This document shows positions 27,731 through 35,401 of a DNA stretch of 64,000 bases, piece by piece. Positions within the stretch are counted from its first letter, which is position 1. Each line of letters opens with the position of its first letter. The notes below the pieces were generated by a model that was not told where the DNA came from, ran no database searches, and saw nothing but the letters and a program-made list of their open reading frames with translations. Origin of the DNA: Candidatus Desulfosporosinus nitrosoreducens (lineage in GTDB: Bacteria > Bacillota > Desulfitobacteriia > Desulfitobacteriales > Desulfitobacteriaceae); NCBI RefSeq assembly GCF_030954495.1, contig NZ_JAVHUW010000082.1, forward strand, positions 173,108-237,107, written 5' to 3'. The position numbers and the translations under genes are program-made.

Positions 27731-28939
27731 TTAATACTCTTCTCCCGCCTTAAAGTTATAAATCGGTTTAATTACTTTCACAATATCTGCTGTCGGGCCA
27801 ATATGGTTTACGATGTCATCCATAGACTTATAAGCCATTGGACACTCATCCAATGTTTCTTTATTAACTGATGTCGTGTAGACATCCTTCATCTGTTTTT
27901 TAAAGTCCGAAACGGTAAAACTTTGTTTTGCCTTAGTCCTGCTCATGAGCCTGCCAGCACCATGAGGGGCAGAGCAGTTCCAATCCTCATTGCCTTTTCC
28001 TAAACAGATGAGACTACCATCCCTCATATTGATCGGAATTAAAAGTCTTTCTCCTTTCTTTGCGGACACGGCGCCTTTCCGTAAGATCATCGTGTCGGTA
28101 TCAATGTAATTATGAGTCGTAGTGAACTGTTCCGCTACGTCTAATTTCATGCCTTTCACGATCTCAGTAATCATTGCTTTACGGTTTAGCACCGCAAACT
28201 GCTGAACGATTTTCATATCATGAATATAATCCTCAAACAGACTCCCAGTTACATAAGCAAGAGGAAACGGAATTTCGGTCATTACCTGATTTTTAAATTC
28301 CTTTAATGCATTCTCTATTTCTTTATCACGGCCTTCAGACTTTAAGCGGACAATGAGTGCCTCCATATCTGATTTGCCATTATGGTTTAACTGCTTATAC
28401 CCGGCGTCCTGATAATATTTTGCCACCTCAAGTCCTAAGTGACGGCTCCCTGAATGAACTACAACATATAAGCTGCCCGCCTCATCCTTATTAACCTCAA
28501 TAAAATGATTGCCGCCACCCAATGTTCCAATACTTTTTTCTGCTCTGTCCAGTTGCACTGCTTTACGACAACGTAGCCCTGTTAAATCAATTTGCTCATT
28601 ATACCGATGCGGTGTCTTCCGCACCTCAAAACCTGACGGTATGTTCTCATAAATCAACTTATCTAACCTTTGCAGTTCCAGTCGTTTGTTGCTGATTGAG
28701 ATAGTTTCCATACCGCAGCCAATATCTACGCCCACTAAGTTAGGAACCACTTTATCCGTAATGGTCATCGTGGTTCCAATCGTGCAGCCGGCTCCAGCAT
28801 GCACATCCGGCATGACCCTGATTTTGCTTGCTTTTACAAACTCCTGGTTACAAAGGGTCTCAATCTGTGAAGCAGCTCCTTCTTCCAGAATATCGGTATA
28901 CACCTTTGCTATATTAAATTTCCCTTCTATTTGCAACAT
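27731..28939 (-). CDS. rtcB: RNA-splicing ligase RtcB (RtcB2-type, paired with PrfH)
   Basis: 402 aa with conserved RtcB motifs: GVDIGCGM, GGGNHFIEV, and HGAGR near the C-terminus. Sits directly downstream of the prfH homolog. Confidence 0.9.
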   Translation of the reverse strand: MLQIEGKFNIAKVYTDILEEGAASQIETLCNQEFVKASKIRVMPDVHAGAGCTIGTTMTITDKVVPNLVGVDIGCGMETISISNKRLELQRLDKLIYENIPSGFEVRKTPHRYNEQIDLTGLRCRKAVQLDRAEKSIGTLGGGNHFIEVNKDEAGSLYVVVHSGSRHLGLEVAKYYQDAGYKQLNHNGKSDMEALIVRLKSEGRDKEIENALKEFKNQVMTEIPFPLAYVTGSLFEDYIHDMKIVQQFAVLNRKAMITEIVKGMKLDVAEQFTTTHNYIDTDTMILRKGAVSAKKGERLLIPINMRDGSLICLGKGNEDWNCSAPHGAGRLMSRTKAKQSFTVSDFKKQMKDVYTTSVNKETLDECPMAYKSMDDIVNHIGPTADIVKVIKPIYNFKAGEEY

Positions 28940-31445: not shown

Positions 31446-32579
31446 TTAATTAATTGATTTAGCCGAGAGCAAATTATTCAGCTGTTCAAGCAAGCTACCT
31501 CCACCGGTAAGCGATATATTTCCGATCTTATCACAGATTTTTTCTAAAAACTCCAGTTCCTTTAACCGATAAAGGGTTTGGTTTTCTTCCATCAGCTTTG
31601 CCGTATTTAAGAGACTTCTGGTCGAAGCGACTTCCTCTCTGCGGGTAATAACATTGGCTTGGGCTTTCTTTTCCGCAACCAACACGGTATTGAGGATTTC
31701 TTTAATATCGCCGGGCAGAATAATATCTTTTACCCCAACAAAAATGAATTCAACACCATAACTGGAGCTTTTCTCTTGAAATTTTCCAAGGACATAGCTC
31801 CCTACTTCATGTTTCTTTAAAAGAAGATCGTCTAACTTTAAAGATCCAATATACTCTCTTAAAATGAGCTGTAAAAAGATATAAAGCTGTTCCTCAAAGG
31901 ACTTTACTTCAATGACTTTTAGTGGATCGATAATTTTATACTGACAAACAAAATTCAGTCGTAATGTGATCTTGTCTTCCGTCATAATCTCTTGGCCCGT
32001 CATATCCATCTGCTGCTGCCTTAAATCTATATTTTTCACGGCAATATGTACCGGACTTTTCCAAAAGAAATATCTACCAGGTTCCAATATTTTATGAATT
32101 ATATTGTTGTAATAGAGAATCCCTTTTTCGTAGCTTGCAACTTCACAATAAGTCAAAAAACCGGCCAGCATCGGGTTACTATATACTGAAGGATCTATAT
32201 CCGATTGGACTTCGGGATTGCGTATATCTATGATAATAAACTCATGCTTTTTCATGATGTTCCAGAATGCATATTTTCCCGGCTTTAGCACCTCAATAAA
32301 CTTATTATCTTCAAAATGGATCGCAATCTCATAGTCCTGGACATCGATAACTGTAAGTTCCTGCAAAAGTTCATGATCTCCAAGAAACAGATTGATGTTT
32401 TTACCATTCGTCTCAAAAGTTTTGTTAACATCGGATGTCACAACTTGATATTTGATCAATGGATTAAAGTAATGTTTTCCAGGTTTTAAGCATTTCGTAT
32501 AGTTACCGTCTTTGAATAATAAACCTCTTTCATCATTCTTAATGCTTACCTTCATTTTAATCCATCCTTTTCTTAACAA
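31446..32579 (-). CDS. SPFH/band-7 domain protein with a triplicated N-terminal G..F.DG...LkPGKyfF motif, no TM helix
   Basis: C-terminal SPFH pattern (..RLNFVCQYKIIDPLKVI..IGSLKLDDLL..GVEFIFVGVKDIILPGDIKEILNTVLVAEKKAQANVITRREEVAS..). The N-terminus has three repeats (GLLFKDGNYTKCLKPGKHYF / FEDNKFIEVLKPGKYAFW / YYNNIIHKILEPGRYFFW). An alternative start lies at 32555. Confidence 0.6.
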   Translation of the reverse strand: MLRKGWIKMKVSIKNDERGLLFKDGNYTKCLKPGKHYFNPLIKYQVVTSDVNKTFETNGKNINLFLGDHELLQELTVIDVQDYEIAIHFEDNKFIEVLKPGKYAFWNIMKKHEFIIIDIRNPEVQSDIDPSVYSNPMLAGFLTYCEVASYEKGILYYNNIIHKILEPGRYFFWKSPVHIAVKNIDLRQQQMDMTGQEIMTEDKITLRLNFVCQYKIIDPLKVIEVKSFEEQLYIFLQLILREYIGSLKLDDLLLKKHEVGSYVLGKFQEKSSSYGVEFIFVGVKDIILPGDIKEILNTVLVAEKKAQANVITRREEVASTRSLLNTAKLMEENQTLYRLKELEFLEKICDKIGNISLTGGGSLLEQLNNLLSAKSIN

Positions 32580-32861
32580 TTTTGCTGAATCTTTTTCGAG
32601 AATCCTTTCGGAACTTTAGCGGAGTACTGCTTAAGAACAGAGCTTACCTATCTTTGTCATGAATCAATTGTTTCTGCCACAGACATAGCCTTGGCAAGAA
32701 CTGCTTCAGATAAGTTTAGGTTTGCTTTATTCGGTATCCGCGCACTTCATGGCTTAAATCCCGGCGTCTTTGCAGTTATACTGCCTAAACATAGGATTCT
32801 CTCCAAAGATTCATACTCCGGGTGACCATTGAGAGCTAACCATAGCTTCAGATCCTTAAAT

Positions 32862-32960
32862 CTGATGGGGATTCGAACCCCATATTGCCGAAGGCTCTGC
32901 CGCTGAGCTAATTACCTTACGGTAATGGAGGAATCGAACCTCCGTTCTTCGGTTATTGAG
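32862..32960 (-). ncRNA. candidate tRNA-like structured RNA (Y-RNA/YrlA-like). A closing stem encloses a TΨC-type hairpin, a GNRA hairpin and a D-arm-like hairpin, and is followed by a second TΨC-type hairpin.
   Basis: Minus-strand reading: CCGAAG-[GGAGG UUCGAUU CCUCC]-[AUUACC GUAA GGUAAU]-[GCUC AGCGGCA GAGC]-CUUCGG-CAAUAU-[GGGG UUCGAAU CCCC]. The T-loop motif is correct only on the minus strand. No anticodon arm or matching acceptor stem, so it is not a canonical tRNA. Confidence 0.45.
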
Positions 32961-33102
32961 TTCCATATTCCGATACCGGCATACCTAAATCTTAACAAGA
33001 TCAGGCACCGCAAGATCATACAGAAATCTAGGTAAAGGAATTAGAAACATTTTCAGTATACCGGGATAATTTACCGGTCAAAAGACAAAAAGTTTGCAAC
33101 AT

Positions 33103-35401
<2,299 letters not shown>

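Follow-up and report, generated by a model that had tools for sequence, protein, structure and literature searches.

The locus lies within the window, i.e., the whole stretch of 64,000 nucleotides of Desulfosporosinus DNA that was analysed, and its genes are read from the minus strand. Two overlapping genes with WYL and WCX domains (Pfam; 35380-34097 and 34155-33103, together spanning 33103..35380) probably encode the transcription regulators of the operon, judging from these domains; the WYL protein gave no match when searched against PDB sequences. Further along lies a slipin (SPFH) gene (31446..32570, with its Shine-Dalgarno sequence AAAGGAUGG at 32570-32562 and its ATG at 32555), the product of which matches Pfam Band_7 at 1e-28, is 92% identical to a Desulfosporosinus slipin, lacks a membrane segment and adopts the SPFH fold known from proteins that form rings and cages. 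It is followed by genes for a HEAT-repeat protein (31350-29773, Pfam), PrfH (29727-29119, Pfam and TIGR03072) and RtcB (28939-27731, Pfam). PrfH passes the TIGR03072 equivalog model with 224.5 bits against a cut-off of 166.65, and in the test for a PrfH-RtcB2 module RtcB reached 108 bits against the release_rtcB cut-off of 271.8. An earlier reading of the sequence alone had placed a tRNA-like structured RNA inside an RtcB operon here, and rightly so.

The hairpins of this element are all where that reading had put them on the minus strand, as confirmed by inspection of the sequence: a closing stem CCGAAG/CUUCGG (32952-32947 and 32893-32888), a T arm GGAGG-UUCGAUU-CCUCC (32943-32927), a GUAA-capped hairpin AUUACC-GUAA-GGUAAU (32926-32911) and a D arm GCUC-AGCGGCA-GAGC (32908-32894). 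Together they form module 1 (32879..32957, minus strand). The covariance model R1, built for this module, scores 84.5 bits in the window and recovers it at the same position in 25 loci with 70-102 bits. In these 25 related loci 100% of 480 base-pair cells are paired, both sides have changed in 8 of the 20 pairs, and the covariation score is 0.299, compared with 0.138 for shuffles and at most 0.082 for slid partners. The stems, which the sequence-only reading had left to covariation analysis, thus keep both pairing and covariation, and the flagged stretch is a genuine RNA module, conserved and shaped like a tRNA. One could still argue for chance hairpins, or for decayed remnants of tandem tRNA genes devoid of present function, because the single-sequence folding energy is unremarkable (z = -1.83, by itself non-significant) and because module 1 is absent in some relatives (deleted in L015 and L032, partly replaced in L003 and L011), for which reason it is, as far as these loci indicate, dispensable. 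However, position and pairs are kept through compensatory changes from Clostridia to Paenibacillus, and the T-loop motif lies about 100-fold above chance in the window, where the 11-mer GGTTCGAWTCC has 2 copies, both at this element, with 0.02 expected. Since the covariation counts already refute the reading as chance or remnant, we consider its probability negligible.

The arms of module 1 follow the order anticodon-stem equivalent (32952-32948 and 32892-32888), short variable loop, T arm, capped acceptor, U8-A9 and D arm. It had been supposed that there is no anticodon arm and no matching acceptor stem, which has to be revised: the element has equivalents of both, the acceptor stem as the closed, GUAA-capped hairpin and the anticodon stem as what had been called the closing stem. 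The view that this is a tRNA-like structured RNA and not a tRNA gene holds, as the fold is conserved and ARAGORN called zero tRNAs in the window and in the related loci L005, L029, L061 and L073; in place of the contiguous cloverleaf with free acceptor ends that defines a tRNA gene, the arm order is permuted and the acceptor stem closed. The nucleotides U8, A9, A14, G18, G19, A21, U54, U55, C56 and A58 are invariant in 24 of 24 sequences, while G46 and C48 are kept in 20 of 24. These are positions of tertiary contacts in tRNA, so that, together with the established rules of tRNA structure, they point to an L-shaped fold. [quoted passage not shown] On this comparative evidence, module 1 mimics a tRNA in the manner of YrlA, being circularly permuted and having a closed acceptor.

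The proposed likeness to YrlA stands in so far as YrlA (RF02553) is the nearest curated family, no other Rfam family ranking higher on module 1 either in the window (36.6 bits, E 4e-6 in a local search) or in five relatives (33-44 bits); it falls short in that all these scores lie below the gathering score of 69 and the outer stem is unsupported. The alignment to RF02553 is good only in the tRNA-like part, at about model positions 23-85. The candidate for the outer, Ro60-type stem that the Rfam alignment gives, GAACUC/GGGUUC, is 75.4% paired compared with 75.2% for shuffles, displays zero covariation, and overlaps the T stem of module 2 (see below), a well-supported helix with which it competes. 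Since the Ro60-binding outer stem of YrlA is thus left without comparative support, the label of Y RNA is not justified here. The statement that no Ro60/TROVE gene is present agrees with our Pfam search, in which no TROVE protein was matched among the window's ORFs of 440 aa or more. We also weighed whether this could be a true Y RNA binding a Ro60/Rsr protein encoded elsewhere in the genome, with the adjacency to slipin being secondary. The top Rfam rank of YrlA would fit, as would the known position of YrlA RNAs adjacent to rtcB (10.1101/312249), but the subthreshold scores with only the tRNA-like part aligning well, the state of the Ro60-helix equivalent, the missing TROVE match and a conserved neighbour that is slipin in the relatives make this reading very improbable.

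The second T-loop hairpin, (U)GGGG-UUCGAAU-CCCC(A) (32882-32866), is present as had been noticed; it is more than a lone hairpin, as it starts a second, widespread permuted tRNA-like module (module 2, model R2, 32814..32884, minus strand) with its own capped acceptor hairpin of 7 bp (32865-32848), D arm GCUA-UGGU-UAGC (32846-32835) and anticodon-arm position (32833-32816). Its arm order is that of module 1 with its own anticodon arm added, and it opens toward the remaining RNA at the variable-loop position. The window scores 59.2 bits with the covariance model R2, which has matches in 51 loci (E < 4e-6), compared with the 25 loci of module 1, at the same position upstream of slipin. In the R2 loci 92.9% of cells are paired, compared with 74.6% for shuffles, 18 of 20 pairs have changed on both sides and the covariation score is 0.396 (shuffles, 0.109); the covariance-model alignment was used for this, as a cross-phylum MAFFT alignment (A5) misaligned the acceptor and D arms. 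The Rfam tRNA model scores above its gathering score on module 2 of L033, L073 and L029. Among 80 fetched loci in viral contigs, taken from the 120 matches of a DNA pattern that was too loose (GTGCC..GGTAT.C.G..GGTTCGA), R2 found no real copy, and there is therefore no evidence for phage-borne copies.

Change is much faster in the anticodon loop of module 2 than in the remaining RNA: 4 of its 7 positions differ between RNAs of 5-9% divergence, and 3-5 of 7 at 12-14%. The stem below it is nearly invariant. In the window itself decay has left only about 3 bp of the anticodon arm. Several loops match natural Paenibacillus anticodon loops (Lys, Glu, Gly, Asn and Leu) exactly, which is weak evidence, as most CU-NNN-AA loops would match some tRNA. 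We also weighed whether module 2, and perhaps module 1, could be a circularly permuted pre-tRNA maturing to a working replacement tRNA, the acceptor loop being opened by RNase P/Z and the variable-loop side being joined by RtcB, which is encoded alongside. Permuted tRNA genes share the order T arm, acceptor 3' strand, loop, acceptor 5' strand, D arm and anticodon arm; with its typical length of 17 nt the acceptor hairpin has room for 7 bp and a 3-nt loop; and RNase P cuts the YrlA of Mycobacterium smegmatis, which has an acceptor stem of 7 bp and to which CCA is added. However, bacteria have no known enzyme for excising the module on its variable-loop side, the acceptor stems and the discriminator-equivalent position vary freely and do not track the anticodon, the Pnkp/Hen1 loci have no RtcB, and the window's anticodon arm is decayed, so that we find maturation to a tRNA extremely unlikely.

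The proposal of a discrete RNA gene of about 100 nt had to be given up. According to the alignments, both modules are parts of a conserved structured RNA of about 480 nt (approximately 33048-32598, minus strand). Its 5' domain (32958..33048) holds the closing helices P0a (GUUUC.../GGAAC) and P0b (AUUCC/GG..) and the hairpins P1 (33032-33010) and P2 (33009-32978), the latter with a base GUGCC/GGUAU that contains two invariant G.U pairs. P1 and P2 are paired in 91.8% of cells in a MAFFT alignment of 45 loci (A9), with 81.4% for shuffles, and their covariation is 0.334 (shuffles, 0.173), one pair being AU in 23 and GC in 22 sequences. P0b is 90% paired with swaps from CG to UA or AU, and P0a is weaker (72%, partly through alignment slippage). 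At the other end the long-range helix L of 10 bp joins GAGAAUCCUA (32792..32801) to AAGGAUUCUC (32598..32607), the latter strand being the probable 3' limit of the structured RNA; 7 of its pairs change on both sides in a MAFFT alignment of 43 loci (A10). Helix N is formed by AGUGCGC (32746-32740), directly followed by the near-invariant GGAUACCG (32739-32732), and by GCAGUACU (32623..32630) within the conserved block CUUAAGCAGYACUCCGC; it is 96.5% paired, with both-side changes in 3 of 4 counted pairs. For helices L, M and N together, scored on alignments that were not fitted to any structure, 94.1% of cells are paired compared with 82.9% for shuffles, and the covariation is 0.462, with 0.247 for shuffles and at most 0.165 for slid partners (A10). 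In the helix search both-side changes were required, as a naive version with G.U allowed was too noisy. A long-range pairing of GGUAUGCCGG with CGGAUACC was dropped because the 5' sequence is the base of the local hairpin P2, and a pairing of the 5' end with the Shine-Dalgarno sequence suggested by RNAalifold was rejected, being only 4 bp of a generic anti-SD type.

At gathering thresholds Rfam has no family in the window and gives only tRNA matches in 11 related loci; the RNA of about 480 nt is therefore not a curated family. These scans also exclude OLE, ROOL, GOLLD, raiA, T-box and tmRNA, and the permissive matches to tmRNA, sX4, SNORA32 and mir-571 were dismissed as T-loop echoes or noise.

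Just upstream, 7-8 nt before the conserved 5' UUGUUCC, lies the -10-like hexamer TATACT (33055..33060, minus strand), which is near-invariant in an alignment of 24 loci (A11) and is probably the promoter of an RNA-slipin transcript. The nearest -35-like element, TTGACC (33081-33076), is only 15 nt away, and this short spacer is why a consensus promoter scan missed the hexamer. A terminator-like hairpin GUUUGCAAC/GUUGCAAAC with a U run (33089..33121, minus strand) overlaps the stop codon of the second WYL/WCX gene. Clostridial loci keep this hairpin in their upstream sequences, and it may double as an operator. It is the sole terminator-like site in 32300-33400, and the scan of this interval gave no terminator between the RNA and slipin. 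We also note that the Clostridial RNA stands at the 5' end of the operon, where it could be a cis-acting leader.

Among the relatives, slipin lies directly 3' of the RNA in Clostridia, Thermoactinomycetaceae and Paenibacillus, and in 72 of 81 sequences the 5' anchor motif precedes slipin by 380-640 nt. The HEAT-repeat protein, which had been put forward as a possible RNA-binding partner, is confined, like PrfH, to 3 of the 81 loci (the window, L001 and L002), all in Desulfosporosinus; the conserved neighbour is slipin. In many loci the RNA-slipin unit has the WYL/WCX pair beside it, encoded on the same strand in Clostridia and divergently in Paenibacillus. The ligase varies, with two types of RtcB or Pnkp/Hen1 (Hen1-Pnkp replaces RtcB in L041), and the gene orders include WYL-WYL-RNA-slipin-RtcB, RtcB-RNA-slipin and Hen1-Pnkp-DUF6847-RNA-slipin, RtcB being downstream of the RNA in Clostridia and upstream in many Paenibacillus loci.

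Starting from the observed fold, its conservation, the larger RNA and the invariant adjacency of RNA and slipin, we lean, with some reserve, towards the RNA with two modules being the partner of a slipin scaffold in RNA repair, in a recruiting role, a decoy role, or both. We infer that its transcription would start from a promoter closely following the WYL regulator genes, and the transcript would run on, with no terminator, into slipin-HEAT-prfH-rtcB. The RNA may then bind the cytosolic slipin (Band-7/SPFH) scaffold as its cognate partner, as Y RNA does for Ro60, and the resulting RNP would show tRNA-shaped surfaces that recruit or regulate tRNA-handling repair enzymes, i.e., RtcB here and Pnkp/Hen1 elsewhere. 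Alternatively or additionally, the tRNA shapes of the RNP could compete with tRNAs for tRNA-cutting toxins. Counting against this reading are that module 1 can be lost, that the window's module 2 has a degenerate anticodon arm, and that the Clostridial RNA, from its place at the head of the operon, could act in cis as a leader.

A different role, which we hold to be unlikely, is that of a cis-acting damage sensor, where the tRNA mimics of a leader bait tRNA-targeting nucleases. Once the bait is cut, for instance within the module 2 anticodon loop, the slipin-RtcB message downstream would change in stability or translation, or cyclic-phosphate fragments would arise that the WYL regulators sense, and RtcB would reseal the leader and so reset the switch. 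This would agree with a Clostridial RNA that begins right after the conserved -10 box and enters slipin with no terminator, with the fast-changing loop on its almost invariant stem and its identities to natural loops, and with damaged tRNAs being a known inducer of the Salmonella rtc operon (PMC7790460). On the other hand, the RNA in Paenibacillus lies downstream of RtcB or Pnkp/Hen1 and therefore cannot be their leader, the YrlA of Salmonella is not cut by an anticodon nuclease active there, module 1 has no anticodon loop and the window's module 2 has mostly lost its anticodon stem, while the loop identities count for little. As the RNA is mid-operon in some arrangements, a partner RNA fits better than an operon leader.

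The partner reading could be carried further, to a bacterial vault-like RNP composed of a membrane-free, MVP-like slipin and the two-mimic RNA of about 480 nt, with a diversifying anticodon-loop bait and coupling to repair, which is a speculative extension that we think improbable. Here the anticodon loop of module 2 would be under diversifying selection to imitate whichever host tRNA is targeted, so that the second mimic would be a bait or decoy for anticodon nucleases, and its cleavage or occupancy would couple toxin attack to repair by RtcB or Pnkp-Hen1 and, in Desulfosporosinus, also to ribosome rescue by PrfH.

Bacterial RNA-repair operons are thought to use RNA cofactors, and to our knowledge Ro60 with Y RNA is the only such pair that has been studied experimentally. 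The pair of Band-7 protein and tRNA-like RNA has stayed a computational prediction since 2016. This locus and its approximately 70 relatives provide a covariation-supported model of an RNA of about 480 nt, absent from Rfam, with two tRNA mimics, an invariant slipin partner, interchangeable ligases and a fast-changing anticodon loop, which makes tRNA mimicry for recruitment, decoy or damage sensing testable in the repair of toxin-cut tRNA and rRNA. It also bears on whether SPFH cages can be RNA-binding machines, and hence on the origin of the eukaryotic vault.

Compared with known systems, the likeness of the slipin-RNA pair to the vault RNP (major vault protein, vault RNA and the TROVE-domain protein TEP1) is a lead only, as stomatin and HflK/C score better for slipin, TM-scores are low (approximately 0.4) and cage formation is putative. 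Permuted tRNA genes of red algae and some archaea likewise have the 3' half before the 5' half and an acceptor closed by an intervening loop; unlike the RNA described here, in which acceptor identity elements are not conserved, they mature to working tRNAs through a splicing endonuclease and a ligase, and we know of no equivalent splicing endonuclease in bacteria. YrlA is closer: module 1 shares its order of anticodon stem without loop, variable loop, T arm, closed acceptor stem-loop and D arm, the conserved sequences of D arm and T loop, the position beside rtcB and the best Rfam match. It differs in scoring about half of the gathering score, in having neither a supported Ro60-binding stem nor an rsr gene nearby, in sitting inside an RNA of about 480 nt instead of being a separate RNA of about 100 nt, and in that the neighbour of its RNA is slipin.

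Closest of all is the b7a-tRNA. As described in 10.1101/312249, Burroughs and Aravind predicted in 2016 a Band-7-associated tRNA-like RNA beside RtcB as well as YrlA adjoining Band-7 proteins; according to the same source, b7a-tRNA was never experimentally validated. Beyond the YrlA structure preprint, our search of the literature on Band-7/SPFH proteins with RtcB found nothing relevant, nor did the CoCoNuT paper bear on the subject, and Rfam has no family for such an RNA of about 480 nt. Against the literature searched, with the original description of 2016 standing outside the comparison, it appears to be new that module 2 is permuted and capped, that a YrlA-type module can precede it, and that both modules lie within a larger covarying RNA. 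The RNA described here is presumably the predicted b7a-tRNA, or YrlA by Band-7, in so far as that prediction is set out in the source cited: in both cases a tRNA-like noncoding RNA, interchangeable with YrlA, stands beside Band-7/SPFH and RtcB in RNA-repair operons. In our loci a tRNA-like RNA is immediately beside the Band-7/SPFH gene and shares a repair operon with an RNA ligase (RtcB or another), and module 2, above the Rfam tRNA threshold in some Paenibacillus loci, fits the b7a-tRNA as predicted.

All hairpins described in the sequence-only reading are present when the minus strand of 32960-32862 is read directly: a closing stem CCGAAG/CUUCGG (32952-32947 with 32893-32888), a T arm GGAGG-UUCGAUU-CCUCC (32943-32927), a hairpin AUUACC-GUAA-GGUAAU (32926-32911), a D arm GCUC-AGCGGCA-GAGC (32908-32894) and a second T arm GGGG-UUCGAAU-CCCC (32882-32866). 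The window has two copies of the T-loop 11-mer GGTTCGAWTCC, and both fall in this element; 0.02 copies are expected. ARAGORN calls no tRNA in the window, in agreement with the earlier statement that this is not a tRNA gene, and a scan at Rfam gathering thresholds gives no hit there; the top of a permissive scan is YrlA (RF02553) with 36.6 bits (E 4e-6) against a cut-off of 69 bits. Since the single-sequence folding energy is unremarkable (z = -1.83), the case depends on comparison with other genomes.

A 547-nt gap separates a pair of WYL/WCX genes (35380-34097 and 34155-33103, minus strand) from a slipin/SPFH gene on the same strand (ATG at 32555), and the element lies in it. A Desulfosporosinus protein shares 92% identity with this slipin, and for proteins of Clostridia, Thermoactinomycetaceae and Paenibacillus the identity is above 60%. 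Scanning one genome per species gave 343 related loci, of which the best 80 were compared. The motif of T arm, capped hairpin and D arm recurs 350-450 nt upstream of slipin with compensatory hairpin changes visible, the whole upstream region can be aligned among relatives, and 72 of 81 sequences have a 5' anchor motif with the expected spacing.

A covariance model of the flagged element (module 1), built from 18 sequences (R1, alignment A2), matches 25 loci with 70-102 bits, and in the window it covers 32957-32879 of the minus strand with 84.5 bits. In the R1 alignment of these 25 loci, standard pairs occupy 480 of 480 cells; fitting to the model biases this alignment toward pairing, but with so wide a margin and with the slid controls an artefact is unlikely. 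The stems covary: 8/20 pairs are changed on both sides, and the covariation of 0.299 exceeds that of shuffles (0.138) and of slid partners (0.082 or less); we regard chance as an extremely improbable source of these hairpins.

The order of parts in module 1 is anticodon-stem 3' strand, variable loop (GUGUC in most sequences, GAAC or AAC in the window), T arm, loop-closed acceptor stem, U8-A9, D arm, A26 and anticodon-stem 5' strand, and this is the architecture of a permuted tRNA. The "GNRA hairpin" and "closing stem" of the sequence-only reading are therefore real, but they are the acceptor and anticodon stems, respectively. Nucleotides at the positions of tRNA tertiary contacts vary little or not at all (U8, A9, A14, G18, G19, A21, U54, U55, C56 and A58 in 24/24 sequences, R15 in 23/24, G46 and C48 in 20/24), which by established rules of tRNA structure implies an L-shaped fold. 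The solved structure of Salmonella YrlA shares this topology (10.1101/312249). A permuted pre-tRNA matured by RtcB would be another reading of such an order, and we consider it very improbable. Paenibacillus loci carry no module 1, only a second module, and module 1 is lineage-specific and dispensable. At L015:3925-4005 it was lost via a deletion joining both T-loops, at L032:594-687 it is absent, and at L003:106-220 and L011:1670-1782 its acceptor/D part is swapped for an unrelated insert of ~60 nt common to both loci.

The second T-loop also exists, although not as a lone hairpin, because it starts a second tRNA-like unit (module 2; 32884-32814, minus strand). Its covariance model (R2, built on alignment A6) scores 59.2 bits in the window and matches 51 loci at E <4e-6, Paenibacillus included. 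The order here is T arm, capped acceptor hairpin of usually 17 nt (7 bp in the window), a two-base linker, D arm with GG in the loop, one base and an anticodon arm of the form CUCGA-7 nt-UCGAG. Across these loci 92.9% of cells are paired versus 74.6% in shuffles, covariation is 0.396 versus 0.109, and 18/20 pairs are changed on both sides. The acceptor hairpin covaries freely, while the anticodon stem sequence is almost invariant; in the window this stem is decayed, with ~3 bp left. The Rfam tRNA model scores above threshold on module 2 of three loci (L033, L073 and L029), and ARAGORN rejects the module as a tRNA.

In its anticodon loop C32/U33 are kept and A37 mostly so, and at least 17 different triplets occur, most often UUU, UCC and UUC. 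Read from pairwise differences and not from a phylogeny, turnover of the loop is fast: Paenibacillus RNAs 5-9% divergent carry two loop alleles differing at 4/7 positions, and loops of Clostridial RNA pairs 12-14% divergent differ at 3-5/7 positions. This turnover of tRNA identity is possibly adaptive. Several module 2 loops are identical to anticodon loops of tRNAs in the L033 array (Lys CUUUUAA, Glu CUUUCAC, Gly CUUCCAA, Asn CUGUUAA and Leu CUUAAAA), with the caveat that a CU-NNN-AA loop would in most cases match one tRNA or another. This array (L033:1102-3175, Paenibacillus allorhizosphaerae) holds 19 tandem tRNA genes directly upstream of an RtcB-RNA-slipin unit, and its position beside a tRNA-repair system may be no coincidence.

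The flagged element is not a discrete gene but one module of a larger covarying RNA of ~480 nt. Its further helices were scored on MAFFT alignments fitted to no structure. The 5' hairpins P1 and P2 (A9) are 91.8% paired versus 81.4%, with covariation of 0.334 versus 0.173 and one pair that is AU in 23 and GC in 22 sequences; helix P0b, closing the 5' domain (A11), shows CG to UA/AU swaps at 90% pairing. In the 3' domain, the long-range helices L (10 bp), M and N (A10) are 94.1% paired versus 82.9%, with 13/17 pairs changed on both sides and covariation of 0.462 versus 0.247. Helix L pairs 32801-32792 with 32607-32598 (minus strand), which places the structured RNA at roughly 33048-32598; Rfam 15 has no match to this larger RNA. 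At the P2 base GUGCC/GGUAU (32978-33009, minus strand) two G.U pairs are essentially invariant (GU in 45/45 and 41/45), which suggests a specific metal or protein contact. The stretch GGAUACCG (32732-32739, minus strand) is among the most conserved blocks, and no pairing partner could be assigned to it in the RNA alignments.

Within 32300-33400 a single site resembles a terminator, a hairpin (33121-33089, minus strand) at the second WYL gene's stop codon; it is formed by the palindrome GUUUGCAAC..GUUGCAAAC and followed by UUUUUGUCU. Lying between the -10 box and the WYL genes, the palindrome keeps its sequence in four relatives (L004, L005, L008 and L009) and could act both as a terminator and as an operator of the WYL pair. 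A TATACT box (33060-33055), nearly invariant in Clostridial relatives, lies 7-8 nt upstream of a conserved start UUGUUCC. With the terminator only upstream and this box conserved, we infer that the RNA is made from the predicted promoter and read through into slipin. Further downstream on the minus strand are a HEAT-repeat protein, PrfH (a true equivalog, TIGR03072, 224.5 bits) and RtcB (27731-28939), which scores 108 bits with release_rtcB, the PrfH-partner family, against a cut-off of 271.8, and is by sequence apparently not of that type.

Tblastn of the window proteins against the 80 loci, together with Pfam scans, showed that slipin is the constant neighbour of the RNA while other genes vary. 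Clostridial loci read WYL-WYL-RNA-slipin-RtcB, and many Paenibacillus loci read RtcB-RNA-slipin with a divergent WYL pair and a distant RtcB type (about 27% identical). In Paenibacillus tyrfis (L041:243-5250), Hen1, Pnkp and a DUF6847 protein take the place of RtcB (Hen1-Pnkp-DUF6847-RNA-slipin), so the RNA-slipin pair goes together with RNA-repair ligases that are unrelated to each other. A MAG labelled Candidatus Udaeobacter (Verrucomicrobiota; L038) also has an RNA-slipin-RtcB unit typical of Paenibacillus, which may reflect horizontal transfer or a contaminated bin. Three loci alone, the window, L001 and L002, all Desulfosporosinus, have PrfH and the HEAT protein, which look like a recent addition to the slipin-RtcB system; the HEAT protein, previously suggested as RNA partner, is thus a poor candidate and slipin a good one. 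The slipin sequence has no hydrophobic segment, and in its AlphaFold model (pLDDT 79) an SPFH domain and long helices accompany three beta repeats at the N terminus, with stomatin and HflK/C as best structural matches and major vault protein giving the longest alignments.

Somewhat favoured, then, is the view that the RNA is slipin's partner, whose tRNA-shaped surfaces would serve to recruit or regulate the ligase, to compete with tRNAs for toxins, or to do both. It is best supported because RNA-slipin adjacency is invariant whatever the gene order or ligase, the RNA is mid-operon in Paenibacillus, and it is large and complex. The main rival, a cis-acting bait or sensor leader, is favoured by the rapid evolution of the anticodon loop and by the 5' location of the RNA in Clostridia; we hold it to be rather unlikely, though ahead of chance, a pre-tRNA or a Y RNA bound by Ro60.

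The last of these, which we rate as improbable, turns on the YrlA similarity. The Rfam YrlA model matches module 1 in every relative tested with 33-44 bits (cut-off 69), aligning well at about positions 23-85 only. The outer stem GAACUC/GGGUUC from the Rfam alignment, the would-be counterpart of the Ro60-binding helix, overlaps the module 2 T stem, is paired in 75.4% of cells versus 75.2% in shuffles, and shows no covariation. No TROVE domain was found among window ORFs of at least 440 aa, in which scope the noted absence of a Ro60/TROVE gene holds. With the outer stem unsupported and no rsr gene nearby, the defining features of a Y RNA are missing; the suggested YrlA-like tRNA mimicry stands and the Y RNA assignment does not, and module 1 would act like the YrlA tRNA domain yet is not classifiable as a Y RNA.

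Rot/TROVE and SPFH/Band-7 modules were reportedly regarded by Burroughs and Aravind in 2016 as scaffolds with cognate RNAs, namely Y RNAs and a novel tRNA-like molecule. The RtcB gene of some bacteria lies beside genes for a Band-7 protein and for a predicted "band 7-associated tRNA", and YrlA occasionally adjoins a Band-7 protein (Burroughs and Aravind 2016, as summarised in 10.1101/312249, where these adjacencies are described as a prediction without experimental validation). The flagged element is presumably a member of this predicted class. In the literature consulted we found no description of a tandem YrlA-type and b7a-type arrangement, of the permuted, capped nature of module 2, or of a ~480-nt covarying RNA with both modules. 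A decade-old prediction of a Band-7/tRNA-like RNA becomes in this way an RNA that is defined and can be tested, with additional anatomy that was not expected, and the proposed partnership of RNA and slipin would be analogous to that of Y RNA and Ro60.
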